The position numbers were made by a program, and so were the translations under genes. The notes under the pieces are model-generated. The model was not told where the DNA came from. It was given only the letters and a program-made list of their open reading frames with translations, and searched no databases. From a phage: DNA of 64,000 bases. Each line of letters begins with the position of its first letter. Positions within the stretch are counted from its first letter, which is position 1. The stretch lies in the NCBI GenBank assembly GCA_014435945.1, contig GCA_014435945.1_4088.1; one strand, written 5' to 3'. This document shows, piece after piece, positions 1 to 16,200 of the stretch.

Positions 1-1002
1 AATGGTAACATTAGAACCAACACCCAATGAACCAGCATAACTACTCGCATTTAAACCTGTTGCATATACACCAGAACTCGTAACTAGTATACTAGATTGT
101 GCTGGGTATCCAGTATGAATTGAATACAAAGTACCGGGTGGTAAGGTTGTACTATTATTTCCTAATACTGCTCGTGCTGTACTAGACGTAGTGTTATTAC
201 CCCATGCCCCATTATTGGCGTTCCCACCCACTAGGAACTGACGTGCTCCTGTACTTGGATTCTCCACTAAAGCACTGACTGCACCAATTGTACATACAAC
301 ATATTGTAATGTTTTTGTATATGTTGTACTTGGCTGATATAAAGTATATTGATTGTATGGAGTCCATGTATCAGTAGTACTTATACCTGATGTACTACCA
401 CCAATATATAAATTATTTTGTGTATCATAAAACATTACACAGCTATTTGTTGACTGTATTCGTGCAATATCAACATTAGGCGTGACAGCTTTTACAAATG
501 ATCCATCTGTTATTTGTTGAGTACTACCAGTACCATCAGCGAATTGTCTAGCCCCACTCCAACCAGTACTCCATATTGTATTATTATCCATTAAGAAAGT
601 AAACCAAGTAGTACCTGCATACATCTGTTTAATTGAAGTACCTGAACTTTGTGTGTACAAATTTTCAATATATTGGTTATAACTTAAAAATGATGTAGTA
701 CTAGTTTCTAAACCAATATGACCACCATATCCACAATAAAAATAATTTAAGTCCTTATCTTGAACTAACAAAGTTCCTTGTGTCATCCAGCAATCTTTGA
801 CATTTTCTCTAATTAATGTCCACGACCTTACTGCATTATTATTTCCGCGACCGAACTTCCCATAACTATTATTTCCTCGTGCGTATAGTTGACCGTCAGT
901 ATAAAGTACAACCACATCAGTATCAGTTGGTATTATTTTCTTAATTAGAAGAGGTTCAGGTGTGATATTCCCATAATCAAACAATCTAACAAAAGGTAAC
1001 AT
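1..1002 (-). CDS. RCC1-like beta-propeller repeat protein, array member (C-terminal part outside window)
   Basis: ATG at 1000-1002 with conserved SD/TATAAT cassette upstream; N-term MLPFVRLFDYGN; GQLG-type repeats. Confidence 0.7.
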   Translation of the reverse strand, partial: MLPFVRLFDYGNITPEPLLIKKIIPTDTDVVVLYTDGQLYARGNNSYGKFGRGNNNAVRSWTLIRENVKDCWMTQGTLLVQDKDLNYFYCGYGGHIGLETSTTSFLSYNQYIENLYTQSSGTSIKQMYAGTTWFTFLMDNNTIWSTGWSGARQFADGTGSTQQITDGSFVKAVTPNVDIARIQSTNSCVMFYDTQNNLYIGGSTSGISTTDTWTPYNQYTLYQPSTTYTKTLQYVVCTIGAVSALVENPSTGARQFLVGGNANNGAWGNNTTSSTARAVLGNNSTTLPPGTLYSIHTGYPAQSSILVTSSGVYATGLNASSYAGSLGVGSNVTI

Positions 1003-1073
1003 ATTTTCCTCCTTTATTCATTATACTATATTTAACCAAAAAGAAAAGCCAGTGCTCAAGTACTGGAGTAATG
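1003..1073 (-). promoter_or_regulatory. Intergenic cassette: terminator-like hairpin (CCAGT..ACTGG) + TATAAT box + AGGAGG SD
   Basis: Same cassette repeated between array genes. Confidence 0.5.
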
Positions 1074-2216
1074 TCAATAAGTATCCCAAGGTAATGGTGT
1101 CTTCCTAAATCCATACCTGGTTGTGCTCGCACCATCACCAGCAATGTATCTACCTATACCACATTGGTATAACTCTGTACTACTACATATAGCACCACCT
1201 ATAGTACCACTACTCCACTGAATTATATTAGAATATGTTATTGGTAAATCACTACATTTAGTATATATCCCAACGGTAGCACCACCACTAATACCACCAA
1301 ACATACTTCGGTTAGCACCAGTGTAATATATACCATCTGGACTCATAAATGCAGAGGTGTAAGTTGTACTGCAATCCACTGGACTTCTTATTGTATTAAG
1401 ATCGCCTGGGTATGTCCTGACACCAAAGGTGTATACATTACCATCAGTTGTAATACCATTACCTAACTGTCCACTGTTTTGTCCACCACATGTAAGCAAC
1501 AATGCAGAACCAGAAACAATTGCAGTAGCATTATACGAAGTACCCATTGCAATAGAAGCACCAGACAATAGTTTTGGAGTAACAATAGCTGTTGTATTAC
1601 CCTGGCCTAATTCACCATTGATATTTCGTCCCCATGCGTATATAGAAGTCGTATCCAATCGACATAGTACTGAACCATAACTAAACGTATATCGCATGTC
1701 ATTTACAGCAGAAGGCAAATTAACCTTAGTTGCAACACTAATAACACCACCAGTAACACCACTGTTTGCGTACATGTTACGACCATATGCATATAAAGAA
1801 CCATCTGAAGTTTTAATATGCATCATACCATCTGTACAATATAATGCATCTATACTCTCCACCGCAACCGGACCCATACTGGTAGTTATATCGGTCCACC
1901 CAAGCGTGGTAGTACTAGAAATTAAGTTATTTCCGGCGTATAGTATTCTATTATTATTAGTAACTACAACTGTATATCTGGCAGTAACACCAATTAATCG
2001 AACATCAGTATATATCTTAGACCACGCACCTAATGAATTGGTGTTTGCATCCAAAAAGCCCAACTGCCCATCTGTATTGTATCCAATACCCCATACATCA
2101 CCTGCACTGTCCAATAACACTTCATGTGAAAATCCAATCTTAAAATCTTTTATTGTAGGAACTACCGGAACTGGTGCAATATTCCCGTACTTAACCATTC
2201 TTGCAAAAGGTAACAT
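1074..2216 (-). CDS. RCC1-like beta-propeller repeat protein, array member
   Basis: 380 aa ORF; N-term MLPFARMVKYGN; repeated G-x-N-x-x-GQLG motifs; SD AGGGAGG. Confidence 0.75.
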   Translation of the reverse strand: MLPFARMVKYGNIAPVPVVPTIKDFKIGFSHEVLLDSAGDVWGIGYNTDGQLGFLDANTNSLGAWSKIYTDVRLIGVTARYTVVVTNNNRILYAGNNLISSTTTLGWTDITTSMGPVAVESIDALYCTDGMMHIKTSDGSLYAYGRNMYANSGVTGGVISVATKVNLPSAVNDMRYTFSYGSVLCRLDTTSIYAWGRNINGELGQGNTTAIVTPKLLSGASIAMGTSYNATAIVSGSALLLTCGGQNSGQLGNGITTDGNVYTFGVRTYPGDLNTIRSPVDCSTTYTSAFMSPDGIYYTGANRSMFGGISGGATVGIYTKCSDLPITYSNIIQWSSGTIGGAICSSTELYQCGIGRYIAGDGASTTRYGFRKTPLPWDTY

Positions 2217-2269
2217 AATTCCCTCCTTTATTCATTATACTATATTTAATACAAATAAGAATGCCAGTA
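2217..2269 (-). promoter_or_regulatory. Intergenic cassette: TATAAT box + SD; 9-bp-stem hairpin (2261-2283) overlaps stop codon of upstream gene, followed by T-run
   Basis: ATGCCAGTA-cttga-TACTGGCAT then tcttatttgtatt on minus strand. Confidence 0.55.
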
Positions 2270-3466
2270 TCAAGTACTGGCATTAATTGTTGGGAGTGGG
2301 AATTCTTTCATGACAGATGAACTACTTGCTGAAATATTATCAGGAGATTTCCCCGCGTAGTATAATTTATTATTAATGTACATATACAACGTTGCATCGT
2401 TCCCTGCTACAAGGGATTCACTTTTCTTAAAGTTAACACCAGCAGGTAAAATTGCTTCAACAAATGATCCTGAATCGCGTGTGGTATTATTTGCTAACTG
2501 ACCATTGTTATTATAACCAGTACTATAAATTTTACCTGAACTATAATATACAAGACCACGTGTACTAGTGTTTTCTATTCGAATGAATTCACTATCATCT
2601 GGGACTGTAGTTGATAGTACTGCGTTTAACCTATAAGCAGTTGATACATTATTATTGCCCAGTTGTCCATAACCTTGAAAACCTAGTGCATACATAGGAC
2701 ATGATTCTGGTGATGTTGGTGTTCCTTTTGTTATAATACCAATATAATTCGCACTACAAAAAATATCTACTGCTTCTACAACAGGTGTACCCTTATATTG
2801 AACCCAAGGGAATACATACGATTGTTGTCTGCCATCTGCCAAAGTACCAGAAGATGTTGTTCCTGTACGCCACATTGTATCATCAAGTTTAATAATCCAG
2901 TTAGCTGATGTAATTGATGAACAGAATTTTTTAACATTATCTACTACAAATGTAAATCTATTATAATATGATGCCGTGTTTATACCAAACTTAGCACCAG
3001 TATTATCACCTAACACATATAAACTATTATCAGTTCCTAAAATCACAGCATAATTATAACCTACGTATATCTCTTTAATTCTTGAAATTCCAAATTGTGT
3101 AAAATAGCTTGTACATTCAGTGAATGTTGTTACATTATTGGTGGTATTATTACCCAGCCAAGTATCCAAACCACTATAAAAGAATCTATCATCATTAGTG
3201 CGTATTAGACAAAAAGCGTTCATAGTACTGCACCAAAAATCTTTAACATTGCTATATATTTTTGTCCATTCAGTTACTTGATTAGTATGACCTAAACCAA
3301 AAATTCCACCATTCTGAAGACCCATAGCCCATACTGAACCATTTACATCAAGTAGCATTGTACATGTATATGAATAACCACCCGATGGGGTGACTAATTT
3401 AGTAAAATTTGGTACATATGGAATGACTACATTCCCGTACTTAACCATTCTTGCAAAAGGTAACAT
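2270..3466 (-). CDS. RCC1-like beta-propeller repeat protein, array member
   Basis: 398 aa; N-term MLPFARMVKYGN; Gly/Asn/Thr-rich repeats. Confidence 0.75.
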   Translation of the reverse strand: MLPFARMVKYGNVVIPYVPNFTKLVTPSGGYSYTCTMLLDVNGSVWAMGLQNGGIFGLGHTNQVTEWTKIYSNVKDFWCSTMNAFCLIRTNDDRFFYSGLDTWLGNNTTNNVTTFTECTSYFTQFGISRIKEIYVGYNYAVILGTDNSLYVLGDNTGAKFGINTASYYNRFTFVVDNVKKFCSSITSANWIIKLDDTMWRTGTTSSGTLADGRQQSYVFPWVQYKGTPVVEAVDIFCSANYIGIITKGTPTSPESCPMYALGFQGYGQLGNNNVSTAYRLNAVLSTTVPDDSEFIRIENTSTRGLVYYSSGKIYSTGYNNNGQLANNTTRDSGSFVEAILPAGVNFKKSESLVAGNDATLYMYINNKLYYAGKSPDNISASSSSVMKEFPLPTINAST

Positions 3467-3537
3467 ATTTCCCTCCTTTATTCATTATACTATATTTAAT
3501 TCAAAAAGAAAAGCCAGTATCAAGTACTGGCATTATG
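3467..3537 (-). promoter_or_regulatory. Intergenic cassette: terminator hairpin + TATAAT + SD
   Basis: gccagtatcaagtactggc hairpin; conserved tatagtataatgaataaaggaggg. Confidence 0.5.
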
Positions 3538-4647
3538 TTATTTTGGTAAATCAATTTTAGTAAAGACTGCAACATCCTCGCTTGCCCCTGGGATGGCGTA
3601 ATAAGAACCAGTACTATATACATCTCCGTCTTTTGTTAATATTGATGTCAAACCATCACTAAAAAGAACATCCCTAATTGCACTAACTTCAACGGGTAAT
3701 TGTAAATTTGTAGCACTATATATAGCACCAGTTTGAGAATTGTTTAATCCCAAACCACGGTTCGCCCCAACACCCTTCTGATATGTACTAGTAATTACCA
3801 TTTGTGTCGCAGTATTTAAGGCAGGTGAATTCGTCATAAACAACGGAGAACTATTCGGCAAAGTACTTACAGGAACTGCACGGAATGTAGTTGTATCTGA
3901 ACTAAGAAAGTTTGGCGTTTGACCACATACGAAATATGATGTACCATTATAGTAATTAAATGCATTACCACCTATAGCTGCATCTATTACTCCAGTACTA
4001 CGTAATCCCCACGTGTTAATTTGTGTTCGGTTCCCCGTGCCATGCTGACCCCTGTCATTCCACCCAGAACTATATAACTTATTATCTAATGTAATATACA
4101 TACTGTCATTTGCATTCGTCATTACTTTACGCACATTAGTAGCACATTGAGTTAATGTGTAAATTGATGATGAACCAATACCTAAAGCACCACGATATCC
4201 ATTAGCCCCTGCACCATAGAGTACTGAACTAGTGCTAAGTACAAATATTAAACCATACGAACATACTATATCAGCAATTTCATTTACCGATAGTACACTC
4301 GTAAACCACGCAGTCCTATCAACTAATACAGTACTGTAAGAAGTCCCAGTAGAAGACGAAAACCAATAAGTCTCACCAGCAGTCCATATAGTATTGTCAC
4401 TCTTAATAACAACAACTGTACGATCACCAGCAAAAAAATTAGTAACTCCTGTACTCACTAATCTCCATGAAGATACAGTGTTGGTATTACCATTACCAGA
4501 TTCACCACCTTGATTTCTTCCTATGTAATATAAATCATGTGAATCAGTCAATAAGAATTGACCCTGTGTGGAAGCACCAACTTTAATTATATTTTTAGGA
4601 CCAGGTGCAACATTCCCATACTCCAACATCCTTACAAAAGGTAACAT
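3538..4647 (-). CDS. RCC1-like beta-propeller repeat protein, array member
   Basis: 369 aa; N-term MLPFVRMLEYGN; 10-nt gap to upstream gene, so co-transcribed. Confidence 0.75.
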   Translation of the reverse strand: MLPFVRMLEYGNVAPGPKNIIKVGASTQGQFLLTDSHDLYYIGRNQGGESGNGNTNTVSSWRLVSTGVTNFFAGDRTVVVIKSDNTIWTAGETYWFSSSTGTSYSTVLVDRTAWFTSVLSVNEIADIVCSYGLIFVLSTSSVLYGAGANGYRGALGIGSSSIYTLTQCATNVRKVMTNANDSMYITLDNKLYSSGWNDRGQHGTGNRTQINTWGLRSTGVIDAAIGGNAFNYYNGTSYFVCGQTPNFLSSDTTTFRAVPVSTLPNSSPLFMTNSPALNTATQMVITSTYQKGVGANRGLGLNNSQTGAIYSATNLQLPVEVSAIRDVLFSDGLTSILTKDGDVYSTGSYYAIPGASEDVAVFTKIDLPK

Positions 4648-4657
4648 ATTTCTCTCC

Positions 4658-5788
4658 TTAATTTAATAATGCCCCTGGCAAATCCACTTTGACGAATTGT
4701 GCATATGCTGAGGAATTTTGATCAAAGTTTGGTCCCAATCCATAAAATGAGCTAATGCCGTCTTCATTTGTGTATATGATATAAACGTTCTTTACATCAT
4801 TTCCGCATATAAATCGAATGTCTTTCGTTTGTGTTCCCGCTGGAACATTACGAAGGTTCACAACGCCATTACTTGCATTGTTATCAGCCGCCGCAATTGG
4901 TAATTGATTTTGACCATATTGACCACGCATATTTTTTGCATCTAAACCAAACACAGTATCTGATACCGCACCAACTTTCAAAAATGAACCAAAACTATTA
5001 TTGAATGACTTTGGAAATGTACCACTATAAACACTTCTCCCATCTGATAATACCGCTGAACTGAATTTCCCGCTATTCGATATGGCAAATTCATTGTAAG
5101 GAAGTGTACCCATTTTGGTATATACAGAATATGAATTAGTGGAAGTATTATCAATAATCTTATTACCATTATATCCAATACCATACTGGTATCCGTCTGC
5201 ATCTTGAACTATACACAAAGGACCACTTGGGGTTTGTGTCAACGAAACAACACGTTCAACTTGTATATCACCAAATGTATTTCTTCGCCATGTTCTATCT
5301 ATTATAGTACTAGTATTACCCAAAGATAATGCCACACTATATAATAGATTGTTTTCAGTAAAAATGGCAACATAATATGCGTGGTTAATAACTTGCTTCA
5401 TCCCAGCATCAATAACTTCCTGTGGAATATGATCAGTAACATCCAACCAATCAAGGTTAGATGATGCAATATCTGGAGTACTGAATTTGTCAAATCTAGT
5501 TGAGCCACAAACTAGCACTCTATCATCATTTGTCAAAGCCACTGTGCTAGTCTGCATATTAGAACTGAATGATTTAACATTACTAATGTTAGACTTGTAC
5601 CAACCCTTATCAGCAGCACCCACCGTGAATCCGGTTCCCATTGATCCACTTGTACTTGTACCATAAGCCCACATCTCACCACTATATGTTAGTGCCATAC
5701 AGTGGCTTCCATTTGCTTGGAAATCCTTTATACCAGTGGGAGCAACCACTGTATTCCCATAATCAAACATTCTAACAAAAGGTAACAT
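4658..5788 (-). CDS. RCC1-like beta-propeller repeat protein, array member
   Basis: Start moved to conserved ATG (MLPFVRMFDYGN) at 5788; track start 5803 adds 5 aa. Confidence 0.72.
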   Translation of the reverse strand: MLPFVRMFDYGNTVVAPTGIKDFQANGSHCMALTYSGEMWAYGTSTSGSMGTGFTVGAADKGWYKSNISNVKSFSSNMQTSTVALTNDDRVLVCGSTRFDKFSTPDIASSNLDWLDVTDHIPQEVIDAGMKQVINHAYYVAIFTENNLLYSVALSLGNTSTIIDRTWRRNTFGDIQVERVVSLTQTPSGPLCIVQDADGYQYGIGYNGNKIIDNTSTNSYSVYTKMGTLPYNEFAISNSGKFSSAVLSDGRSVYSGTFPKSFNNSFGSFLKVGAVSDTVFGLDAKNMRGQYGQNQLPIAAADNNASNGVVNLRNVPAGTQTKDIRFICGNDVKNVYIIYTNEDGISSFYGLGPNFDQNSSAYAQFVKVDLPGALLN

Positions 5789-5863
5789 AACTAAAATCTC
5801 CATATAATAATTATAATGTATTTACAAAAAAATACCAGTACGTATTTCAGTACTGGTATAATG
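5789..5863 (-). promoter_or_regulatory. Intergenic cassette with 8-bp-stem hairpin ACCAGTAC..GTACTGGT
   Basis: Hairpin about 5833-5856 plus AT-rich tataat-like tract. Confidence 0.45.
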
Positions 5864-7045
5864 TTATGGTAAAATAATAGCTTGTAACGAACTCATACCC
5901 AATGTTGGGACACTCGCCTGTGGTGCTGGTGAATTCAATTTTGGTGATGAAACCGCATATGACATTCCTGAACCCAAATCTGGATCAAAAACTACAGCAC
6001 AATAATTCCCACTATATATAAGTCCATTCTTGTATCCTTGTGCACTTTGAATGCATTTCGTGAACGTACCAATATCTGTAGTGGCATTTATTAAGTTCCT
6101 CCCACGATAACCGCAGGTGTATATGAAATTATCATCGCCTATGTACATACTAGAATCCCCAGAAGAACTACATAGATACGACATATAAGCACGCATGTTT
6201 TTAGGAGCAACTGACAATGTACCTGCATAGAATTTATTATTCGAACCCGTAATATCACCATCACCCAATGCACCAAAACTTCCCCAGCCAGTACCGTAAT
6301 ATCTCTTATCACTCAAAAATATAATACAGTTGTTATTACACATCTTGATTTGATATATCAATGAAGGATCAACCCCAGGGAATGATTCAGTGAATGTTAG
6401 AACAGCCGGATCAGTACTAGCATTACATTGATGATATGTATTAGTACCAGCGGACAAGATTGTTCCATTAGCTAACAGAATTCTCGCAGTACCAGTACCA
6501 GCAGTACAAGCAACTGCACTTCCTGCACTTCCGGTGTATATTTGTCTGAAAGTAAAGAAACCAACAGTTTTACTTCCCTGCCCACTCCAACCAGTATTAT
6601 CAACTCCACACGCCCATACTGAACCATCTTGCATGATCATCATTACACCAAAGCGTTCTATTGAAATATAAACAATCTTCGTTGTATCAACTGCACTAAA
6701 TCTAGAAGTTATATCAGTCCATACCTTAACACTTACCGCCGTCGCACTGGAAGTAGGATCTTCACCAGCTATCATTATCCTCCCATTGTTAGTAAGATAC
6801 ATTGTCTGACTATAACCAGTACTACAAAACTTAACACTATTAGTCTCTGGAACTTTTAACCACTCGTTGTAACGTGTTACGTTAGTGTTATTACCTAACT
6901 GATAATAGTTATTCATCCCAGATACATATAACACACCATCCTTTATTAAACTATAAGTCGCACTATAGTCACTACAGGTATAACGTGTACCCACAGGTCG
7001 CTCAACGACGTTCCCATAATCAAACATTCTAACAAAAGGTAACAT
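5864..7045 (-). CDS. RCC1-like beta-propeller repeat protein, array member
   Basis: 393 aa; N-term MLPFVRMFDYGN. Confidence 0.75.
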   Translation of the reverse strand: MLPFVRMFDYGNVVERPVGTRYTCSDYSATYSLIKDGVLYVSGMNNYYQLGNNTNVTRYNEWLKVPETNSVKFCSTGYSQTMYLTNNGRIMIAGEDPTSSATAVSVKVWTDITSRFSAVDTTKIVYISIERFGVMMIMQDGSVWACGVDNTGWSGQGSKTVGFFTFRQIYTGSAGSAVACTAGTGTARILLANGTILSAGTNTYHQCNASTDPAVLTFTESFPGVDPSLIYQIKMCNNNCIIFLSDKRYYGTGWGSFGALGDGDITGSNNKFYAGTLSVAPKNMRAYMSYLCSSSGDSSMYIGDDNFIYTCGYRGRNLINATTDIGTFTKCIQSAQGYKNGLIYSGNYCAVVFDPDLGSGMSYAVSSPKLNSPAPQASVPTLGMSSLQAIILP

Positions 7046-7118
7046 AATAAAATCTCCGTAATTAAATTATATAGTATTTACAAAAAATACCAGTACATAT
7101 TTCAGTACTGACCTATTA
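7046..7118 (-). promoter_or_regulatory. Intergenic cassette with hairpin
   Basis: ccagtacatatttcagtactg hairpin; AT-rich promoter-like tract. Confidence 0.45.
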
Positions 7119-8240
7119 TTAAAAGGGCAACGGTAACTCAGTAAAAGTACTTACGTCCGGTAAACCATACATTGAATTAGCATCACCACAGTAATACCAC
7201 TTCGTAGAATCATGTACCACCGATAAACGCTGTGCACATAACACTTCCTGTATGTCATTAAACACCATCGGGACTAACTCATATGTATCCGCAAATGAAG
7301 ATACACCACCACTCGCATGAAAAGTATTCGTCCCAGCATAAAATAACTGATTAGTGTTCTTACCCACAGCAAATGTCATCAATATCCCATCATTCGCCCA
7401 TAAAGAAGAAAACTTATCAACACTACCAGAAAGCTCTGTGTAAGTACTCGTAATGGCACTCGCAGCCGCCGCATTACCCATCTGTTTATTCAAGTTCTGT
7501 CCAGCAATAAAATATCTCGTGCGTGCACTAGAATCAGTATATAATAACCCAGTGTTCGTAGTCATCATTCCAATGTCCTTAATCGTCATACCAGTCTGTG
7601 AATAACTTAGATACGAAGTTAAATTAACATTATTACCCAACGAACCGTTATCACTCATACCACAACGATGTAATATACCACTTGTATCAACGTAGATTGT
7701 ACTAACTAAACTCGTATACAACTCTTGTACATTATTCGCAATAAACACAGCAGTCGCCTTATTACTAACCCCACCAAATGATAGGTTATTATCAAATCCC
7801 TTAGCGTATAATTGATTATTAGTAGTCAATAATCCAATCGTGAAATAAGACATTTTCATATCCCTTACTGTACTCAAATCTACTGCCCCAAATTGGTGCG
7901 TAACATCTGTCCATGTGAAAATCTGTGCACTACCAACACCACCCGTTTCAAACCATTTGTCACCACAGTACAATATGCGATTACCCTTAGTAAAGATAAC
8001 TGTTACCAATCCACTACCACACGCAAACTTTACATCACTTCTAACCTTCGTCCAATTAAGTACATAGGTAGTGGTGTTATTACCTATACCTAACTTGCCA
8101 TAACGGTTATAACCACGCACCCACAAATCACCACTCTTAGTAATTAATAGTAATGCGTCTCCTGTACTTATTATTCGAAATCCCGAACTAGGATCAGGTG
8201 TAATATTTCCATAATCAAACAATCTAACAAAAGGTAACAT
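7119..8240 (-). CDS. RCC1-like beta-propeller repeat protein, array member
   Basis: 373 aa; N-term MLPFVRLFDYGN; 9-nt gap to upstream gene. Confidence 0.75.
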   Translation of the reverse strand: MLPFVRLFDYGNITPDPSSGFRIISTGDALLLITKSGDLWVRGYNRYGKLGIGNNTTTYVLNWTKVRSDVKFACGSGLVTVIFTKGNRILYCGDKWFETGGVGSAQIFTWTDVTHQFGAVDLSTVRDMKMSYFTIGLLTTNNQLYAKGFDNNLSFGGVSNKATAVFIANNVQELYTSLVSTIYVDTSGILHRCGMSDNGSLGNNVNLTSYLSYSQTGMTIKDIGMMTTNTGLLYTDSSARTRYFIAGQNLNKQMGNAAAASAITSTYTELSGSVDKFSSLWANDGILMTFAVGKNTNQLFYAGTNTFHASGGVSSFADTYELVPMVFNDIQEVLCAQRLSVVHDSTKWYYCGDANSMYGLPDVSTFTELPLPF

Positions 8241-8249
8241 GATTTTCTC

Positions 8250-9443
8250 CTATGATTGCCATAACTGCGTTGGCATTAATGTTAATGTTTTAATTACGGA
8301 AGTACCATCCGGTAAGTTACCACCTGAACCGTTAAAGCCCCCACATGCATATAATTTATAATCTTTAGTTATAATTATTGTTCTGGACCAGTCTTTGGAT
8401 GCCATAAGAACATTGTCATATCCACCCTGTATCGCACTTAAAGAAAACGCCCCCCACGAAGTAATTACTGTTGTATTTCCCGTCCCTTCTTGACCATATG
8501 TATTGATGCCTGCACTCCTGACATATGATGGGTATTGAGCCATAGGTGCACCAATTGTTGAGTTACCCATATTACTAGGACACAGGAAACCATCACTAAT
8601 ATTCACTATAACCTGTGAATTCTGAACTGTAGTTAATTGGTTTGTAGTTGAAGTAGTACCATTCCCAGCTTGTCCAGAATTGTTTCTACCACTCCAGTAC
8701 ACCCTACCGGCAGTGAACCACCAGGTAACATCATAAGTAGCACTTATATAATCGACGTTGGATCGTATTAATTTATTAGTAAAAACGTATGAGCTAGTCC
8801 CACCACCACTTTCACCAAAGTTATCCTTACCACAAAACCATGCTTCTTTATTTGTTTTGAGATAGTGCGTACCCTGTAATGAACACGCCAATTGAGAAAC
8901 TTCACCCATACCAGTAACAACTGTTAGTACTGGAATGGAATTTTGGTTACCTGTTCCACATTCGGCATTTGCATTTTTACCACAAACAACTACTCTTCCA
9001 TCGTGTAGTAATATTCTAGTACTTTCACCTATATGTACACTCTTGATTAAATTAGCGTGTACATTTATTTTGTTAAATGCGGCAGTAACATCAGTCCATG
9101 TTCTAAAATAACCATTAACTGGAGTTGCATCTCCATAATCGGGGAATGCTACAGTATTCCCTGTGAAATATATTCTATTATCCAAGTCAATCATCAATGA
9201 GCCATGAACGCCTAACCAAAAGGCTGCACAGTGCGTTGCCAGTACTGTAAAAGTAGAAACTGTCGATTGATTCCCTAGACCTAATTGGCTCAAGTTATTA
9301 CCACCATAACCGTATAGTGTATTCGTGGGCTTATGTAGATACATAGCATTAGTATAATGTTGCTGTAAAACATCAGTGAACTCAACTGGATCAGGAATAG
9401 GCAGTTTATTCCCGTATTTAACCATTCTTGCAAAAGGTAACAT
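8250..9443 (-). CDS. RCC1-like beta-propeller repeat protein, array member
   Basis: 397 aa; N-term MLPFARMVKYGN. Confidence 0.75.
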   Translation of the reverse strand: MLPFARMVKYGNKLPIPDPVEFTDVLQQHYTNAMYLHKPTNTLYGYGGNNLSQLGLGNQSTVSTFTVLATHCAAFWLGVHGSLMIDLDNRIYFTGNTVAFPDYGDATPVNGYFRTWTDVTAAFNKINVHANLIKSVHIGESTRILLHDGRVVVCGKNANAECGTGNQNSIPVLTVVTGMGEVSQLACSLQGTHYLKTNKEAWFCGKDNFGESGGGTSSYVFTNKLIRSNVDYISATYDVTWWFTAGRVYWSGRNNSGQAGNGTTSTTNQLTTVQNSQVIVNISDGFLCPSNMGNSTIGAPMAQYPSYVRSAGINTYGQEGTGNTTVITSWGAFSLSAIQGGYDNVLMASKDWSRTIIITKDYKLYACGGFNGSGGNLPDGTSVIKTLTLMPTQLWQS

Positions 9444-9513
9444 ATTTCCCTCCTTTATTCATTATACTATATTTAATCAAAAATAAATGCCAGTACACAG
9501 TACTGGCATAATA
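9444..9513 (-). promoter_or_regulatory. Intergenic cassette: hairpin + TATAAT + SD
   Basis: gccagtacacagtactggc; tatagtataatgaataaaggaggg. Confidence 0.5.
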
Positions 9514-10692
9514 TTATCGGTTAAATTTAAAATCTGTTATGTGTGTCCATGTATGATTTAATGGTGTACTCATTGGTGTAAAGCCAGCAGGGTCTGACAA
9601 AGCTGTACCACGTGCGTACATAAATTGATTGCCAGTACAATCCATTATAGCATAAGAACGTTTTGCTGTGCCACATTTGAACCCAACTGCACTACTTGGG
9701 GTCGGTAATACTTCAAATGTAGGTGCATTTGAACTACCACCCCCATCTTTTGTTCCAGCTATGTACAGAACTCCATTAGTATCAATGATTAAGTTAGTCC
9801 AATATACTTGTTCTCGTCCAGCAAAAAAATATGTTAAATCACCTGGTACAAATGGTAACGTTCCTTTATATATTGTGGTATTAACATCCACTGGTGCACC
9901 AGCTACACCCCATGAACTCATATAGTTTCTCCCACTTGCGTAGAATGTAGTTCCTTTACCGTAAAGTATTAATGTTGCTAGACTTGTTCGCATTGCATTA
10001 TATTCAAACTCAGGATCATCAGTAGCGTCCTTAAAAATCTGTGTCCATGTTGTTATATTGCCAGTAGTTGTAACACCCATTTGATAATAATAATTATCAC
10101 CAGTAGCATAGAATTCTTTAGGGCCAGTTTGTACAATTGCATTCCTATTAGTTAACCAAAAATCTAATGTATTAGTCTTGATCTTGGTTGGTGTGTAATT
10201 CGCCACGGTATTTCCTTTTCCGAAATAACCATTAGCGTTATTTCCATGACCCCATAAATCACCATTAGTTGTGCGTAGGAATAATGTACCAATATTGAAT
10301 CCAACTTTTTCTATAGTACTTATGTCAATACCAACAGTCGTGTACTTCGTTGTAAAATCTTGAAAAGTACTCCAATAATTAGATGAACCATTAAACATGG
10401 TTTGTTTACCAGTGTACTTCACTTTATTATCTTTAGTGATAAGTAATGTCCCCCACACTGACGCGAACATCAACTTAACATTTTCCATAACAAAGTATGG
10501 CTTACCGTATGCTGACGCGGTAGAGTTCAAACCTAATAGTTGTCCATTATTACTACAACCCCATACTTCGCCGTTATCCAAAAGCATCAACATAGTAGGT
10601 TTGCCAGATGATACATCCAAAAAGAAATCTTTTGGTGTTGGTACACCAGGTGTAATATTTCCATAATCAAACATTCTAACAAAAGGTAACAT
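9514..10692 (-). CDS. RCC1-like beta-propeller repeat protein, array member
   Basis: 392 aa; N-term MLPFVRMFDYGN. Confidence 0.75.
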   Translation of the reverse strand: MLPFVRMFDYGNITPGVPTPKDFFLDVSSGKPTMLMLLDNGEVWGCSNNGQLLGLNSTASAYGKPYFVMENVKLMFASVWGTLLITKDNKVKYTGKQTMFNGSSNYWSTFQDFTTKYTTVGIDISTIEKVGFNIGTLFLRTTNGDLWGHGNNANGYFGKGNTVANYTPTKIKTNTLDFWLTNRNAIVQTGPKEFYATGDNYYYQMGVTTTGNITTWTQIFKDATDDPEFEYNAMRTSLATLILYGKGTTFYASGRNYMSSWGVAGAPVDVNTTIYKGTLPFVPGDLTYFFAGREQVYWTNLIIDTNGVLYIAGTKDGGGSSNAPTFEVLPTPSSAVGFKCGTAKRSYAIMDCTGNQFMYARGTALSDPAGFTPMSTPLNHTWTHITDFKFNR

Positions 10693-10764
10693 ATTTCCCT
10701 CCTTTATTCATTATACTATATTTAATCAAAAATAAAAGCCAGTACTCTGTACTGGCATATTAAT
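10693..10764 (-). promoter_or_regulatory. Intergenic cassette: hairpin + TATAAT + SD
   Basis: gccagtactctgtactggc; conserved cassette. Confidence 0.5.
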
Positions 10765-11913
10765 TCATTGTATAAATGACATATCTACTTCTGTATAATT
10801 AAGAACGTTCTGTCCAGAAATACCACCCATTACTACTATTGCAATGCCACAATAATATAATTTTCCAGTATCCGTAAGTATAAGTGAACCAGATGGACTG
10901 CGTACCAAATTACACGAAGTATTAAACGAAGTATATGAAGGAGTATAGGAGTACTGATTATTATTATTACCAACACCTAATTGCCCAAACCCATTCGATC
11001 CAGAAGCATATAGAACTTCATCTGCTTTGACAATATGTGATGCCATGTTACCAACACAAGTATATAGAGTATAAACTCCTGAACTCAATAATGTCGGAGT
11101 TTTATATTGTATATCTGTAGATGTAGAAGTACCACCTGTACCAAATTCGTTCCCATATTGTGCACCGAACTGTTTACCACAAGCGTACAAATTATTATCC
11201 GATTTGATAAAAAATGTACTCTGATAACTTACATTAAAATCTATAACATCCGAAGAAATCATCGTCACCCCAGTAATAGAAGTTTGATTACCCGTGCCCA
11301 ACTGGTAGTAATAGTTAAAACCACAACCCCATAAAGTATTATCTTCTCGCAAATAAATGTTACCAACTGCCTTTTTAACCGAAGTTATAGTATCTACTCT
11401 TTTGAATGTGTTAAAAGAATTAATGTTTGTGCCATCACCAAATGATGATATGTTCGATATATTGTTAGCTCCACAACAATACAATGTACCATCGTTTGTT
11501 ATCAAATTCACCTTCATATCATAAAAACTACTCATGTATTTTATATCAGAAACATTAATACCACTTGATGTTATCCACGTAGTACAGTCCGTCCACAAAG
11601 TTTTTCTATCAGTTACACCAGTGAATGCCTTCGTGTTACCAGTGATAAAAACTTTTCCAGTACCTTTCTCTTCATACAATTGACAATCACTACTGTTATC
11701 TTCCAATAGAACTCGTTTAACATTCTCCGCACAAAGAATAAATTTACTCGATGCTACACCTGTACCAGTACCCCAATTCGTCGCAGAAGATGCATACAAC
11801 TTATCAGTATAAGTATCATGAAGATACATAGAATCACTGGAATATATTTTAAAACGCCCTTCTTTCTCAGGTATAATATTCCCATAATCAAACATTCTAA
11901 CAAAAGGTAACAT
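10765..11913 (-). CDS. RCC1-like beta-propeller repeat protein, first array member
   Basis: Start moved to conserved ATG at 11913 (MLPFVRMFDYGN); SD AGGAGG. Confidence 0.72.
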   Translation of the reverse strand: MLPFVRMFDYGNIIPEKEGRFKIYSSDSMYLHDTYTDKLYASSATNWGTGTGVASSKFILCAENVKRVLLEDNSSDCQLYEEKGTGKVFITGNTKAFTGVTDRKTLWTDCTTWITSSGINVSDIKYMSSFYDMKVNLITNDGTLYCCGANNISNISSFGDGTNINSFNTFKRVDTITSVKKAVGNIYLREDNTLWGCGFNYYYQLGTGNQTSITGVTMISSDVIDFNVSYQSTFFIKSDNNLYACGKQFGAQYGNEFGTGGTSTSTDIQYKTPTLLSSGVYTLYTCVGNMASHIVKADEVLYASGSNGFGQLGVGNNNNQYSYTPSYTSFNTSCNLVRSPSGSLILTDTGKLYYCGIAIVVMGGISGQNVLNYTEVDMSFIQ

Positions 11914-11961
11914 ATTTCCTCCTTTATTCATTATATCATATTTACCCCATAAACAAAACCC

Positions 11962-11990
11962 TTGACATCCTTTCAGTACTGGTGTACTAT
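11962..11990 (+). promoter_or_regulatory. sigma70-like promoter for family A operon (TTGACA-N17-TACTAT)
   Basis: TTGACA 11962-11967, TACTAT 11985-11990, then SD AAGGAG and ATG 12016; divergent from RCC1 array. Confidence 0.55.
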
Positions 11991-12015
11991 AGAAGGAATA
12001 TAAGGAGAACTGTAC

Positions 12016-12243
12016 ATGACAACTACACTTAAGTACTACCTCAATACTCTAAATGAACTAGAGTACGCGAAGTTTCTCGCGGATAGTTCGTGGCTAATTG
12101 AGCTAAAAACACATAACAGTACTGGATGTAACCTTATGCTGAACAATGCACTTGATACCCTTGTAGTGAGTATTTTACACAGCAACATCTGCGGGGATAG
12201 CAATAAACAATTATCAAAAATCTTAGTACTGGTAGCTCTATGA
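12016..12243 (+). CDS. small protein, paralog family A
   Basis: 75 aa; SD AAGGAG; family-like N-term KYYLNTL. Confidence 0.6.
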   Translation: MTTTLKYYLNTLNELEYAKFLADSSWLIELKTHNSTGCNLMLNNALDTLVVSILHSNICGDSNKQLSKILVLVAL

Positions 12244-12452
12244 ACACTATGAACATTGAACAGTACTACATTGATGCACTACCAACAAAAGGTCTACGAG
12301 AAAGCCTACTGTATACACAAAATAATTATATAAACCTCAAACATTGTCCTAAACTCTTGAACTCGTACAGGAATAATAAAATAAGAAATGCTGTACAAGG
12401 GGTAGAAAGTATGCAATACTATTACATCCTAACCCTTTTAATCGAACACTAA
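12240..12452 (+). CDS. small protein, paralog family A
   Basis: 70 aa; overlaps upstream stop; QYYIDALP. Confidence 0.6.
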   Translation: MNTMNIEQYYIDALPTKGLRESLLYTQNNYINLKHCPKLLNSYRNNKIRNAVQGVESMQYYYILTLLIEH

Positions 12453-12453
12453 T

Positions 12454-12639
12454 ATGTATAAAGAATTCTACTGTAGTAAGCTGCACAAACAATACAGAGA
12501 TTCATTTCCCAATGAACCTATGGATATGAATAGTCCCTTTTATAAATTTGACTTCAGACTGGAGACACGTTATGCAATAGAACATCAATTTCCTGAAACT
12601 AAGTACTTATCTATCATGAACCTCATCTTTAAGTTCTAA
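12454..12639 (+). CDS. small protein, paralog family A
   Basis: 61 aa; MYKEFY N-term. Confidence 0.6.
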   Translation: MYKEFYCSKLHKQYRDSFPNEPMDMNSPFYKFDFRLETRYAIEHQFPETKYLSIMNLIFKF

Positions 12640-12650
12640 AAGAGTACTAT

Positions 12651-12863
12651 ATGAAAACTATGAACATACACCAGTACTACTTAGATATTCTCCCTAAAGA
12701 TGTACAGTTCATCCTTAAACAAGAATACAGTACTTTAAAAAACCTTAAAAGAACCGCACCGAATGTATTAATCCTGCACCAAGAAAATGTAGTTGATAAT
12801 ATTCTACAAGGTGTACCAGGGACCGAGTACTTTAACATAATAAGGCTAATTACATTACCATGA
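12651..12863 (+). CDS. small protein, paralog family A
   Basis: 70 aa; QYYLDILP; close paralog of 12240. Confidence 0.6.
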   Translation: MKTMNIHQYYLDILPKDVQFILKQEYSTLKNLKRTAPNVLILHQENVVDNILQGVPGTEYFNIIRLITLP

Positions 12864-13045
12864 ATCATATATTATACTATTACCAAAATCTATCCGACAG
12901 GGACAAGTACACCCACAACTCCAATGTATGGTACTACAAACGCGGTAGTATAAGAGACAAACAACATTACTTCTGTATTGCTATAAAAGAAGCACTAACA
13001 ACTAAGTACACGTACAGAGCAGTACTGAAACTTATTGATATGTAA
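12860..13045 (+). CDS. small protein, paralog family A
   Basis: 61 aa; C-term YRAVLKLIDM. Confidence 0.6.
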   Translation: MNHILYYYQNLSDRDKYTHNSNVWYYKRGSIRDKQHYFCIAIKEALTTKYTYRAVLKLIDM

Positions 13046-13055
13046 AGAGAATACT

Positions 13056-13238
13056 ATGAGCATTGAATTGTACTTAAGTAAATTACAGCCTGGCGATAGA
13101 TTCATCTACAATAAGTTCGAATTCAACTACAAGAACGGGAGCAACAAATATCGTCGAGGATACCTATATACAAGCACAAGAGATGCACAAAACGAAAAGT
13201 ACACATACAGAGAAGTACTTAAACTAATCTCTATTTGA
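13056..13238 (+). CDS. small protein, paralog family A
   Basis: Start moved to ATG 13056 (track start is TTG); C-term YREVLKLISI. Confidence 0.58.
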   Translation: MSIELYLSKLQPGDRFIYNKFEFNYKNGSNKYRRGYLYTSTRDAQNEKYTYREVLKLISI

Positions 13239-13246
13239 GGTAATAT

Positions 13247-13432
13247 ATGAACACATTTGAGTACTATACAAATAAACTATCTATGCCTGAAAGATCTCAT
13301 CTCTATGTGTGGAGAAATGCGTATAAAAGCGGCAATAAACTTATACAAAGAAATTCCCTTACAGTGTGTACAAATTTAATTAAAGCAGAGTACCGCACAT
13401 ATATTGAAGTACTCAAACTGATAGCAATATAA
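13247..13432 (+). CDS. small protein, paralog family A
   Basis: 61 aa; MNTFEYYTNKL. Confidence 0.6.
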   Translation: MNTFEYYTNKLSMPERSHLYVWRNAYKSGNKLIQRNSLTVCTNLIKAEYRTYIEVLKLIAI

Positions 13433-13440
13433 GGTACTCT

Positions 13441-13620
13441 ATGCAAGAATTCTATATCTATAACCTCCAGCACAAAGATAGATACAACTATAATAAATTC
13501 CAAAGGTACTACACAGTCGGGAACAAAAGAGATAAAAAACGTTATCTACTCTCGTGTACAGTAGAAGCACAAAACGAAAAGTACAGGTACAGAGAAGTAC
13601 TTAAACTAATCTCAATCTAA
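13441..13620 (+). CDS. small protein, paralog family A (59 aa, below track cutoff)
   Basis: Hand-translated MQEFYIYNL...YREVLKLISI; fills gap in array. Confidence 0.55.
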   Translation: MQEFYIYNLQHKDRYNYNKFQRYYTVGNKRDKKRYLLSCTVEAQNEKYRYREVLKLISI

Positions 13621-13627
13621 GGTAGAC

Positions 13628-13816
13628 ATGAACACTTTTGAGTACTACTTCAATAAACTAAACCACATAGAACAAAGTATGCACAACTCATTTATTCAGC
13701 ACCATCAATCATCTGCATCTGGAATTAAAAATATATCGATTGAGATTATAACTACCCGTGTACTGTCATCTGAACGTTATATGTATATTGATGTACTGAA
13801 ACTCATCTCTATGTAA
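13628..13816 (+). CDS. small protein, paralog family A
   Basis: 62 aa; MNTFEYYFNKL. Confidence 0.6.
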   Translation: MNTFEYYFNKLNHIEQSMHNSFIQHHQSSASGIKNISIEIITTRVLSSERYMYIDVLKLISM

Positions 13817-13824
13817 GGAATAAT

Positions 13825-14004
13825 ATGCAAGAATACTATATAGAACACATAAACATTAAAGACCGTTTCATGTACGACACCTTCGTGAAGTACTACAACC
13901 TGGCAACTAACAGTACTAAAAATATTAATCTCAATAGCTGCATTCATCACGCACTAACAAAAGATAATCCCTTCAGGGAAATCCTCGCTCTCGCATCTGT
14001 ATAA
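13825..14004 (+). CDS. small protein, paralog family A (59 aa, below track cutoff)
   Basis: Hand-translated MQEYYIEHI...; fills gap. Confidence 0.55.
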   Translation: MQEYYIEHINIKDRFMYDTFVKYYNLATNSTKNINLNSCIHHALTKDNPFREILALASV

Positions 14005-14014
14005 AGGAAACCAA

Positions 14015-14674
14015 ATGAAACTTAATGCACACAGCAAACAATACCTTAAGCACTTTAAGTACCTCAACAGTATTCAAGCAGAATCTTTTACATCTGCATA
14101 TACGTATCACCCAAATGTACTAAAGAAACGAAATAAAAAGAAAAAATCCAGAAATGTTCTCGTATCTAAGAACCTCAAATCGTACTTGAAGAAAAATAAT
14201 ATAGCTCTTGCTTTTATTAATATCTATAATACTGATTTAAAAGTATTGAGTACTAATACCAGCACAAAAGCACTAAAGAATGCATCTATCTATATACACA
14301 TGGATAATATCCCGTGTACTATAATTCTATCTTTCGGGAATGTATACTTCTTCGGGAATTGTAATAGCACCCATGATATCAGTACTGCACAATTCCAAAT
14401 CGGAGATATGTACTGCATGGGTTCAGAAAAAATACACGATAACATGCACTTCTTCCAAAAGCAACGTACTAACGAAACTGATACAGTACTGCAATTCCTC
14501 AAAGAACTACAAAACAAAGAATTAACACCAGAAGAAGAATTCATGTACAGTACTGTAATCGATAATCCAGAACTCTATAAAAACGCGTACAAACTAACAA
14601 AACATGTACAGGAACTTATCAGTACTGATAAGAAATTTCATAACCTCATTACGTATATTACAAACTATGTATAA
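14015..14674 (+). CDS. hypothetical protein (219 aa) inserted in family A array
   Basis: ORF with lysine-rich stretch KKRNKKKKSRN; no family A signature. Confidence 0.55.
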   Translation: MKLNAHSKQYLKHFKYLNSIQAESFTSAYTYHPNVLKKRNKKKKSRNVLVSKNLKSYLKKNNIALAFINIYNTDLKVLSTNTSTKALKNASIYIHMDNIPCTIILSFGNVYFFGNCNSTHDISTAQFQIGDMYCMGSEKIHDNMHFFQKQRTNETDTVLQFLKELQNKELTPEEEFMYSTVIDNPELYKNAYKLTKHVQELISTDKKFHNLITYITNYV

Positions 14675-14849
14675 AGAATACTACAAAGATAAAATCCCAA
14701 TGCATCTACAACACCATATACCAAACGTTGCATTGGGTATCAAAGATCACACAAAGATAATGTTCCAACAATGTACTAAGTACACGCTCATATACGATGA
14801 TAATCCATATATGCTGTACTACGTAGTAATGCTAACATTCAGGTACTAA
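14667..14849 (+). CDS. small protein, paralog family A
   Basis: Start moved to ATG 14667 (MYKEYYKDKIP), overlapping upstream stop. Confidence 0.58.
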   Translation: MYKEYYKDKIPMHLQHHIPNVALGIKDHTKIMFQQCTKYTLIYDDNPYMLYYVVMLTFRY

Positions 14850-14850
14850 T

Positions 14851-15030
14851 ATGCACAAATATAAAGAATTCTACCTCTCGTACCTTAATTCCGATATAGT
14901 AACATCCAATACATTCAGTACTAAAATTATCTATAATGAAGTAATGAAAGAATGTATTAAAGGTGCTATTAACCCTAAAGATACGTATGACTTGTACTAT
15001 GCAGTACTAACCCTTGTTTTCACGAAATAA
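14851..15030 (+). CDS. small protein, paralog family A (59 aa)
   Basis: Hand-translated MHKYKEFYLSYL... Confidence 0.55.
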   Translation: MHKYKEFYLSYLNSDIVTSNTFSTKIIYNEVMKECIKGAINPKDTYDLYYAVLTLVFTK

Positions 15031-15038
15031 CACATAAT

Positions 15039-15230
15039 ATGAATAACCACAAAGAATACTACATAGAGAAACTCCCAATGTATCTACAACACCTTGTACC
15101 AACAGAACCATTGCGTATAGAAAAAGACTACGAAAAAGACTATTTCATTAAGTGCACTAAATCCTCGATAGATATTGAGGACTATAATAGAGTACTGTAT
15201 CACATCCTTTTACTAATATATAAGTACTAA
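15039..15230 (+). CDS. small protein, paralog family A
   Basis: 63 aa; MNNHKEYYIEKLP. Confidence 0.6.
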   Translation: MNNHKEYYIEKLPMYLQHLVPTEPLRIEKDYEKDYFIKCTKSSIDIEDYNRVLYHILLLIYKY

Positions 15231-15240
15231 AGAGAACAAT

Positions 15241-15429
15241 ATGAATAACCACAAAGAATACTACACACAATTTCTCCCCAGCATTTTTGAACACTACGCC
15301 AGATATAAAGTCCCCCTGGATAACGATTTGGCAGTACTGGGATTCAATAATTGCATAGAACGCAGTATAGAAAATAGTAGTAGCTATGACCAATTATATA
15401 ACACTATCCTACTTATATTCAGGTACTAA
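15241..15429 (+). CDS. small protein, paralog family A
   Basis: 62 aa; MNNHKEYYTQFLP. Confidence 0.6.
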   Translation: MNNHKEYYTQFLPSIFEHYARYKVPLDNDLAVLGFNNCIERSIENSSSYDQLYNTILLIFRY

Positions 15430-15430
15430 T

Positions 15431-15619
15431 ATGCATAAAGAATACTACACAAAATATTTCCCAATGTACCTCAGTACTAATCTATTAGATAAACCTCGCG
15501 GTATCAATGCACAAAACGATAAAGTGTACTTTACTATGTGCACTAAAGCATGTATACTAGATTTTGATAGCTATCATCGAGTACTATACCACACTCTGTA
15601 CCTCGCGTTCGTGTACTAA
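15431..15619 (+). CDS. small protein, paralog family A
   Basis: Start moved to ATG 15431 (MHKEYYTKYFP). Confidence 0.58.
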   Translation: MHKEYYTKYFPMYLSTNLLDKPRGINAQNDKVYFTMCTKACILDFDSYHRVLYHTLYLAFVY

Positions 15620-15629
15620 AGAGGCCAAT

Positions 15630-15836
15630 ATGAACGAACAGAAAGAATTTTACACCAAATACCTCAGCAACGAAGAACAATTGTTTCTAAGGAGTGTATC
15701 ACCTTTAAGTTTAGATACACCACACGCCAGACATTGCTTTAATAATTGTATACGTAGTACTCTAGAAGCTTTAGAAAACAATAACAAAAAGATTCAGTAC
15801 TCAGGTGTAATAGGACTAATATTCTTCTATGAATAA
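15630..15836 (+). CDS. small protein, paralog family A
   Basis: Start moved to ATG 15630 (MNEQKEFYTKYL). Confidence 0.58.
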   Translation: MNEQKEFYTKYLSNEEQLFLRSVSPLSLDTPHARHCFNNCIRSTLEALENNNKKIQYSGVIGLIFFYE

Positions 15837-16008: not shown

Positions 16009-16009
16009 T

Positions 16010-16195: not shown

Positions 16196-16200
16196 CTAAT

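Follow-up and report, generated by a model that had tools for sequence, protein, structure and literature searches.

We analyzed a 64,000-nucleotide (nt) stretch of phage DNA (contig GCA_014435945.1_4088.1, hereafter the window), whose positions 1-11944 carry ten tandem minus-strand paralogues of 369-398 amino acids (aa), here numbered G1 to G10, that share a short conserved block at their 5′ ends. This block is a composite module, comprising an upstream terminator, a promoter-like element, a Shine-Dalgarno (SD) sequence and an N-terminal peptide tag. Our analysis makes it likely that the module is kept for its functions in expression and tagging while also serving as a recombination substrate. 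The gene starts, which read ATG TTA CCT TTT..., lie at 11913, 10692, 9443, 8240, 7045, 5788, 4647, 3466, 2216 and 1002, and the last gene, G10, is incomplete and runs past the window start, so that the array extends outside the window. By megablast of positions 1-12000, the source DNA is a jumbo E. coli myovirus of the PBECO4/121Q group (Asteriusvirus): 37 jumbo phage records of this group matched, each as a mosaic, and even the best match, Turkey3, covers just 54% of the query, at 99.3% identity.

Across the ten window paralogues, the first 12 codons share 83% aa and 88% nt identity, vs. 19% aa and 38% nt in the bodies, bearing out an earlier reading made from the sequence alone (the sequence-only reading), which had described conserved 5′ ends in front of strongly diverged genes. 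Mean pairwise identity anchored at the ATG falls from 0.93 (+1 to +15) through 0.82 (+16 to +30) and 0.64 (+31 to +45) to a background of 0.33. The comparison that could have overturned this observation, of synonymous sites in the 5′ region against those in the bodies, leaves it standing, as the same codon is used at identical amino acids in 83% of cases within the first 12 codons and in 45% within the bodies. In the window as a whole, a 26-mer of the module (AAATATAGTATAATGAATAAAGGAGG) occurs in 5 exact copies plus 1 with 2 mismatches, and the 36-nt gene start in 6 copies at ≤3 mismatches, with an expectation of 0 for both.

The tag codons are common to 10/10 genes, the promoter-like motif with its SD sequence stands upstream of 8/10, and a hairpin is present in 7 of those 8. 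These upstream parts come in two cassette sequence types, with type A before the genes starting at 10692, 9443, 3466, 2216 and 1002 and type B before those at 7045 and 5788. The overlap between types is limited to the hairpin core, TAAATA-N3-TATAAT and the coding tag, and the stretch from −30 to −16 is 100% identical among the five type-A copies. The near-identical cassette that the sequence-only reading placed at each gene therefore holds within each type and, as regards the coding tag, in all ten genes, but not between types, nor at G1, which has no hairpin. The same reading was right that two gene pairs are joined without a cassette, at spacings of 9 and 10 nt.

We next turn to the evidence that the module takes part in exchange. 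Comparing the window with Turkey3, EJP2, CMSTMSU and vB_Ec-M-J (blocks ≥200 nt at ≥80% identity; CMSTMSU was left out of statistics, its array being full of frameshift-split open reading frames (ORFs)), we found that 21/21 internal block ends fall at −83 to +45 of a gene start, an interval amounting to ~11% of the gene period. The ends reach from the hairpin to codon 15 and are spread over the module, occurring in the hairpin, beside the ATG and at +35 to +45. One junction can be followed base by base: the window G1/G2 intergenic sequence is identical to the left flank of the Turkey3 g0/g23 cassette up to the 5′ arm of the hairpin and, from the 3′ arm on, identical to the Turkey3 g23/g9 cassette. 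No bases were added or lost at this hybrid junction, indicating that one whole gene was gained or lost by a clean exchange inside the hairpin. In the genome of phage G17, the 3′ end of the body type found at the G3/G4 junction is joined to another body, and two junction types lack a hairpin altogether.

Comparison of array composition between related phages, which the sequence-only reading had proposed, revealed extensive shuffling. Clustering of bodies at ≥70% aa identity yields 40 body types among 77 genes in six genomes, and array order between genomes exhibits partial synteny together with insertions, replacements and reordering, such as between the window (body types 0 9 4 2 3 6 1 10 8 5) and EJP2 (6 1 14 0 2 3 4 30 11 31 32 33 9 34). 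Orthologous bodies (mean 92% aa) bear differing tags, and even differing cassette types, in different genomes: nearly all cassettes of EJP2 are type B, the tags of UE-S1 and phAPEC6 read G/A-R-M-V/I-K, and the window, Turkey3 and vB_Ec-M-J carry a mix of V-R-M-F-D and A-R-M-V-K. Within-genome tag identity of non-orthologues is 0.861 vs. 0.843 ± 0.003, above all 2,000 genome-label permutations.

Synonymous positions of the tag show a similar pattern. Codon 3 is CCT in 75/77 genes, vs. 31% in bodies, and codon 11 is GGG or GGA in 74/74, the preferred GGT never being used. The codon of Tyr-10 is linked to the residues at positions 8-9, with TAT accompanying FD in 25/28 cases and TAC accompanying VK in 18/21; copying of haplotype blocks would fit this linkage better than independent substitutions. 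In UE-S1, the group-3 gene points to short conversion tracts: it has retained both its type-B cassette and its codon 12, yet codons 5-10 are those of the local VK haplotype. Recombination or gene conversion with the conserved segment as homology arm, one of the two explanations put forward in the sequence-only reading, thus draws on block ends, a hybrid junction, shuffled order and genome-following tag haplotypes, and a role of the block as the substrate for exchange appears well supported.

The coding part of the module is conserved mainly because of the peptide it encodes, a reason that the sequence-only reading had overlooked. The tag has the 12-residue consensus M-[LI]-P-F-x-R-[MIL]-x-x-Y-G-N and is followed by a proline-rich linker and then a variable globular head. 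Searching with tblastn against phages and IMG/VR (a word-indexed protein search gave 15 relatives), we found the same kind of array in Klebsiella fENko-Kae01, Erwinia Hallingskeid and several 350-366-kb IMG/VR contigs, and every array member in these genomes starts with the tag consensus. Their tag codons vary freely (CCA/CCG/CCT, TTT/TTC, AGA/AGG/CGT), such that codon identity given the same residue is ~0.60, vs. 0.83 in the window, and among 18 diverse sequences tag residues M1, P3, F4, R6, Y10, G11 and N12 make up 7/10 invariant columns. As read from these alignments, the tag is conserved and selected at the protein level across genera. Neither the 52 kb of the window outside the array nor 50 kb of a structural region contained the pattern. 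In relatives, the tag also heads Kelch proteins (one annotated ‘virion structural protein’), a ConA-like Laminin_G_3 protein and Gly_rich_2 proteins, one of the last noted as found by liquid chromatography-tandem mass spectrometry (LC-MS/MS). Because the tag persists from genus to genus and also heads folds other than RCC1, it is tag and cassette that define the array, and not RCC1. Residues 13-18, which follow the tag, vary (ITPEPL, IAPVPV, VVERPV, KLPIPD) with no consistent motif, and a T4-type protease site after the tag was considered and dropped, there being no consistent L/I-x-E. A possible resemblance of F-V-R-M in the tag to N-terminal degrons of the ClpX type was likewise set aside.

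The heads in the window are RCC1-like in their repeats and, for the one that was modelled, in a predicted seven-bladed propeller fold. PF00415 and/or PF13540 score above curated cut-offs in 8/9 complete window proteins, the sole Pfam match of G4 (7119-8240) is PF25390, below cut-off, and PHROG 4219 is matched by all window products tested. An AlphaFold2 model of G9 forms a seven-bladed propeller from about residue 21 (predicted local distance difference test score, pLDDT, 90.6), with pLDDT of 49-66 at residues 1-20 and >90 in the propeller, and the tag is thus predicted to lie outside the propeller fold; Foldseek ranks UVR8, RPGR and RCC1 closest to this model (TM 0.65-0.79). The association of tagged proteins with virions rests on published proteomes, which we matched to tag-bearing genes. 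The virion proteome of phAPEC6 contains eight ‘DNA condensation’/RCC1-like proteins (PMC7247149), and 8/8 of them start with MLPF[AG]RM[VIL]KYGN; gp001 of GAP32 was likewise detected in virions (PMC5259590). We infer that the tag is a portable signal for docking onto or incorporation into the virion.

The promoter-like element consists of two A/T hexamers, TAAATA-N3-TATAAT, with a TATATT version in Erwinia. Across ~385 kb of the window and relatives, 70/70 matches to TAAATA-N3-TAYAWT lie immediately upstream of tag starts. The TATAAT that the sequence-only reading had pointed out is indeed present but is probably not a standard sigma-70 −10 element: a search for −35 elements at the cassette promoters found none that was convincing, the best being CTGGCA (4/6) with TATAGT in two copies, unlike the small early genes at 19-39 kb of the window, which have near-consensus TTGACA/CTTGCA-17-TATAAT promoters. 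TAAATA instead matches the core of the T4-type late motif present before structural genes of phAPEC6, where we find (T)ATAAATA or GTAAATA, and the upstream region of the phAPEC6 baseplate-wedge gene (cttttctttttgaATAAATAtttctatatataatt) is closely similar to cassette A. For related phages, a late motif, ATAAATA, and a gp55-like sigma factor have been described (PMC5259590), and such a factor is annotated in phAPEC6. Most array genes would thus probably be separate transcription units of the late class. Sigma-70 −35 and MotA-box readings of the 3′ arm of the hairpin were rejected by eye for poor spacing and matches, and a 5-bp SD/CCUUU pairing, also noticed by eye, was dropped as confined to type A.

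Seven hairpins, all on the minus strand and each with a following T-run, precede array genes. Folding energies of five of these range from −10.5 to −17.4 kcal/mol (z −3.6 to −5.9); the two upstream of G10 (z −0.2) and G5 (z −1.6) are weak. Among 28 hairpin copies from three genera, compensatory changes occur in 3/7 stem pairs and the inner AGTA/TACT core is invariant. The hairpin, built on AGTAC/GTACT, together with its T-run reads as an intrinsic terminator of the upstream gene, and the annotators of G17 labelled these hairpins terminators. As the sequence-only reading had noticed, the TGA of the gene ending at 2270 (G8) sits in the loop of the hairpin at 2260-2284; the last four codons of that gene (N-A-S-T) form the 5′ arm of this next cassette's hairpin. 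The G8 end inside the hairpin looks like a scar of exchange within it.

The hairpin stems also belong to a wider pattern in the window. The palindrome AGTACT is present in 270 copies vs. 21.5 expected over the whole window, and CAGTACTG in 61 copies vs. 0.7 expected, a ~90-fold excess. It is dense at 12000-40000 and 54000-64000 and absent at 40000-44000 and 48000-54000. Besides forming the cassette hairpin stems, it abuts the −35 of early promoters (AGTACTTGCA), makes up an extended −10 (AGTACTGTATAAT) and recurs often within coding sequence. A DNA-binding protein may recognize this palindrome.

Collectively, these findings suggest how the system would work. The tag would bring many different ligand-binding heads into the virion as a portable docking or incorporation signal, and the ~100 nt kept alike for functional reasons would allow homologous recombination and short-patch gene conversion between copies. 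Such exchange, both within a genome and between co-infecting phages, would delete, insert, replace and reorder heads in frame, and would at the same time homogenize tag and cassette, such that the system would sustain itself.

Several points weigh against this explanation. Block ends at gene boundaries are also expected where whole genes are gained or lost by other means, as viable indels, and BLAST by construction extends through any shared segment. The within-genome homogeneity of the tag could be explained by co-evolution with a docking partner and not by conversion, and its excess is just 0.018, though this amounts to six standard deviations. Promoter class was assigned from sequence, and two cassette copies also allow a weak sigma-70 reading, CTGGCA-16/17-TATAGT. 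All ten window genes are RCC1-like, the non-RCC1 heads having been seen in relatives only. As for the virion, peptide counts for RCC1-like proteins in the phAPEC6 proteome are low, and ENKO_525c is the only array protein of Kae01 with an LC-MS/MS note. Arrays uniform in tag protein and not in codons, such as those with RIGVYGN (L014), RISKYGN (L016) and RMIQYGN (Hallingskeid), suggest partner co-evolution, and we think that both forces act, i.e., conversion and co-evolution with a docking partner.

Purifying selection alone offers a simpler account, in which each part of the module is kept by its own function, array differences reflect illegitimate gain and loss of whole genes, and the block is uninvolved in exchange. 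Protein-level selection on the peptide across genera, the compensatory changes in the hairpin and the expectation of gene-boundary breakpoints for any viable indel would all be at home in this account. We nonetheless regard it as unlikely, as it does not predict a hybrid junction that switches inside the hairpin without gain or loss of bases, spacer bases without an obvious role that are identical between copies (the 26-mer five times, and the type-A stretch from −30 to −16), synonymous codons fixed against genome bias with one synonymous site linked to neighboring residues, or orthologous bodies bearing the tags and cassette types of other genomes. Still less probable is selection at the nucleotide level on the mRNA, with the leader and first 36 nt kept for translation initiation or as an RNA signal, which was the other explanation put forward in the sequence-only reading. 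The near-invariance of codons 2-4 (TTA CCT TTT), even in the two cassette-less genes, favors such selection, as does a start region that is no more structured than shuffles, and less so in one gene, as would suit an open initiation region. However, the leader plus first 45 nt holds no RNA structure beyond that of shuffles (z +0.2 to +2.3), conserved structure is lacking, and an Rfam scan of positions 1-13000 at E ≤ 1 returned just two chance-level eukaryotic matches. Kae01, Hallingskeid and the metagenomic arrays retain the peptide while codon identity drops from 0.83 to ~0.60, type A and B leaders differ in front of the same coding tag, and tag variants alter amino acids genome by genome; strong selection on a shared leader is therefore not supported.

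Programmed site-specific exchange, with the AGTAC/GTACT hairpins acting as sites of a dedicated enzyme in the manner of integron attC or shufflon sfx, would account for the imperfect palindrome, invariant in its core, that is found at the end of each exchangeable body, and the excess of CAGTACTG hints at a protein that reads it. Against this, junctions extend over the whole homology block and beyond the hairpin, two junction types contain no hairpin, and integron cassettes lack promoters, whereas each gene here comes with a start codon and a promoter-like element of its own. The T-runs after the hairpins resemble those of ordinary intrinsic terminators, in agreement with the G17 annotation, and no recombinase is annotated beside the arrays in relatives, although no dedicated search was made. 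We consider this reading very improbable. Recent tandem duplication, under which the 5′ ends are alike because the copies are young, has the tandem arrangement on its side, and duplication has been invoked by earlier authors (PMC7247149). The bodies are far too divergent for it (19% protein and 38% DNA identity), identity falls from ~0.9 to the ~0.33 background within 45 nt, and non-homologous folds carry the same tag; this step in identity together with the unrelated folds already refutes it, leaving it a negligible chance.

The closest system described so far would be that of the PeSL cassettes of T4-type phages, ~100-bp repeats of terminator and early promoter at which recombination shuffles the flanked ORFans (Arbiol et al. 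2010, PMC2839356; Comeau et al. 2014, PMC4122927). Both systems feature repeated terminator-promoter-SD units of ~100 bp, including a stem-loop, in hyperplastic regions, with indel and replacement junctions between close relatives falling in the unit and each shuffled gene keeping its own expression signals. PeSL units, however, carry consensus sigma-70 early promoters with −35 and −10 elements, flank unrelated ORFans and end at the start codon; experimentally shown promoter and terminator activity and the detection of mini-circles also belong to their hallmarks. The jumbo-phage module is late-motif-like without a good −35 (TATAAT is accompanied at best by the CTGGCA of two copies, so that a PeSL-type promoter is probably lacking), is tied to one tag-defined gene set, and extends its homology 36-45 nt into the ORF, where it encodes a conserved peptide. 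As a separate observation, units of classic PeSL-like architecture are present elsewhere in the window: ~55 small plus-strand ORFs at 19000-39000 each follow a conserved ~85-nt unit made up of an A-rich tract, a near-consensus sigma-70 promoter, a GGGGA...TCCCC stem-loop and an SD sequence.

At the protein level, the nearest analogue would be the internal-protein loci of T-even phages, hypervariable loci whose unrelated proteins share only an N-terminal capsid-targeting leader (PMC3012670; PMC12373910). The array resembles these loci in being a diversity hotspot and in having a short N-terminal leader common to otherwise unrelated proteins, but the leader sequence would be different, and the T4 internal proteins are small, injected from the capsid interior and anti-restriction, vs. 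25-45 kDa, lectin-like heads in the jumbo phages. The T-even leader is removed by the prohead protease at a conserved site, and the capsid targeting sequence of T4 has been grafted onto a reporter. In phages with multiple tailspikes or fibers, a conserved N-terminal anchor carries swapped receptor-binding heads, and the known anchors are folded domains of ~100 residues or more. The arrangement here is similar in its constant attachment N-terminus, variable C-terminal binding domain and exchange at the boundary between them, although the constant part is a 12-residue linear motif with a linker. As in interlocus gene conversion in tandem families, a segment is more alike among paralogues within a genome than among orthologues across genomes, and haplotype blocks are common to non-orthologous copies; unlike the usual case, the converted stretch measures just tens of bases, which is very short, and lies at the 5′ margin of bodies that cannot otherwise be aligned. 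In our literature search, no paper was found to describe the tag or the cassette of these jumbo phages, or the concerted evolution of the two: the genes, though not the cassette, are named in papers on UE-S1, BF17 and fEgEco12, and the GenBank record of UE-S1 flags two ~104-bp ‘repeat_region’ features over the cassette.

The individual copies, all on the minus strand, illustrate the range of module forms. Type-A modules precede G2 (10657-10756; hairpin 10738-10756, T-run, TAAATATAGTATAAT at 10710-10724, GGAG at 10699-10702, tag codons 1-12 at 10657-10692), G3 (9408-9509; hairpin 9487-9509 at −17.4 kcal/mol, promoter-like motif 9461-9475, GGAG 9450-9453, tag 9408-9443), G8 (3431-3531; hairpin 3513-3531, motif 3484-3498, GGAG 3473-3476, tag 3431-3466), G9 (2181-2284; hairpin 2260-2284, motif 2234-2248, GGAG 2223-2226, tag 2181-2216) and G10 (967-1066; degenerate hairpin 1049-1066, z −0.2, motif 1020-1034, GGAG 1009-1012, tag 967-1002). 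Type-B modules precede G5 (7010-7112; hairpin 7089-7112, TAAATACTATATAAT at 7066-7080, GGAG 7054-7057, tag 7010-7045) and G6 (5753-5859; hairpin 5832-5859 at −13.7 kcal/mol, TAAATACATTATAAT at 5810-5824, GGAG 5798-5801, tag 5753-5788). The partial module before G1 (11878-11944; TAAATATGATATAAT at 11930-11944, GGAG 11919-11922, tag 11878-11913) is without a hairpin because the region upstream of G1 is taken up by the −35 (TTGACA at 11962) of an early promoter that reads divergently, on the plus strand. At the two cassette-less junctions, the upstream stop codon overlaps or abuts the SD sequence: at G3/G4 (8205-8252) the stop TAG is part of TAGGAG, with a 9-nt spacer and the tag at 8205-8240, and at G6/G7 (4612-4660) the stop TAA is followed by GGAG, with a 10-nt spacer and the tag at 4612-4647 carrying synonymous variants (GTA AGG ... 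TTG GAG). Given these arrangements, G4 and G7 would be translationally coupled to, and co-transcribed with, the preceding gene.

Behind the tags lie the variable bodies, RCC1-like for G1 (10765-11877, an RCC1-like propeller of orthologue group 0), G2 (9514-10656, group 9), G3 (8250-9407, group 4), G4 (7119-8204, group 2), G5 (5864-7009, group 3), G6 (4658-5752, group 6), G7 (3538-4611, group 1), G8 (2270-3430, group 10) and G9 (1074-2180, group 8, the gene modelled with AlphaFold2), and truncated by the window start for G10 (1-966, group 5). For two genes, the ORF finder starts too early, at upstream ATGs (5789-5803, MEILV-; 11914-11931, MNKGGN-); the conserved tag and the SD spacing place the real starts at 5788 for G6, and not at the ATG at 5803, and at 11913 for G1. 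The same mis-start may occur in some database annotations of relatives. In the phAPEC6 record (MK817115.1; L010, at ~2434, 3614, 6063 and 7325), ORFs of 244-398 aa that carry the tag fall in gaps of the annotation or beneath the mis-started coding sequence gp002; eleven RCC1-like genes, the number published, is therefore too few.

Two further paralogue arrays are present on the plus strand of the window. At 12016-17000, ~25 tandem paralogous genes of 59-77 aa, spaced by 8-11 nt or overlapping, share a conserved 3′ end (gaaGTACTtaaacta) and are annotated as hypothetical proteins in relatives. At 39238-45718, ~30 tandem genes of 66-93 aa have overlapping stop and start codons (ATGA) and share the internal motif GGAACAAACTATCAAGA (G-T-N-Y-Q-E). 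In fENko-Kae01, the tagged-gene array begins ~330 bp from an annotated direct terminal repeat of ~20 kb (L007, 13669-14001), and fEgEco12 has a 20,993-bp terminal repeat (PMC13070987). A terminal-repeat boundary may lie at ~11950-12020 of the window, where G1 faces the divergent early promoter.

Jumbo phages of the Rak2/121Q group have ten to seventeen such genes each; several of the products were detected in virions, yet annotation still lists the proteins under ‘chromosome condensation’ and assigns them no role. We tentatively propose, as a possibility held with much less confidence than the account of the module itself, that the 12-residue tag plugs an exchangeable library of lectin-like heads (RCC1, Kelch, ConA-like and glycine-rich; at least 40 types in six genomes) onto a common virion site of Rak2-like jumbo phages. 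Under this proposal, tag variants would be genome-specific because the tag co-evolves with its docking site, and the DNA of tag and cassette would double as the crossover point, making for a self-maintaining diversification of host-surface recognition or of injected counter-defence. A portable tag on unrelated binding folds, coupled to a recombination-prone cassette, makes an ill-defined set of paralogues accessible to experiment, and it would extend cassette shuffling of the PeSL kind past the early ORFans of T4-type phages to virion-associated genes, with a homology arm that reaches into coding sequence. The array may thus be read as a fast-evolving determinant of host interaction, which would bear on the host range of therapeutic coliphages.

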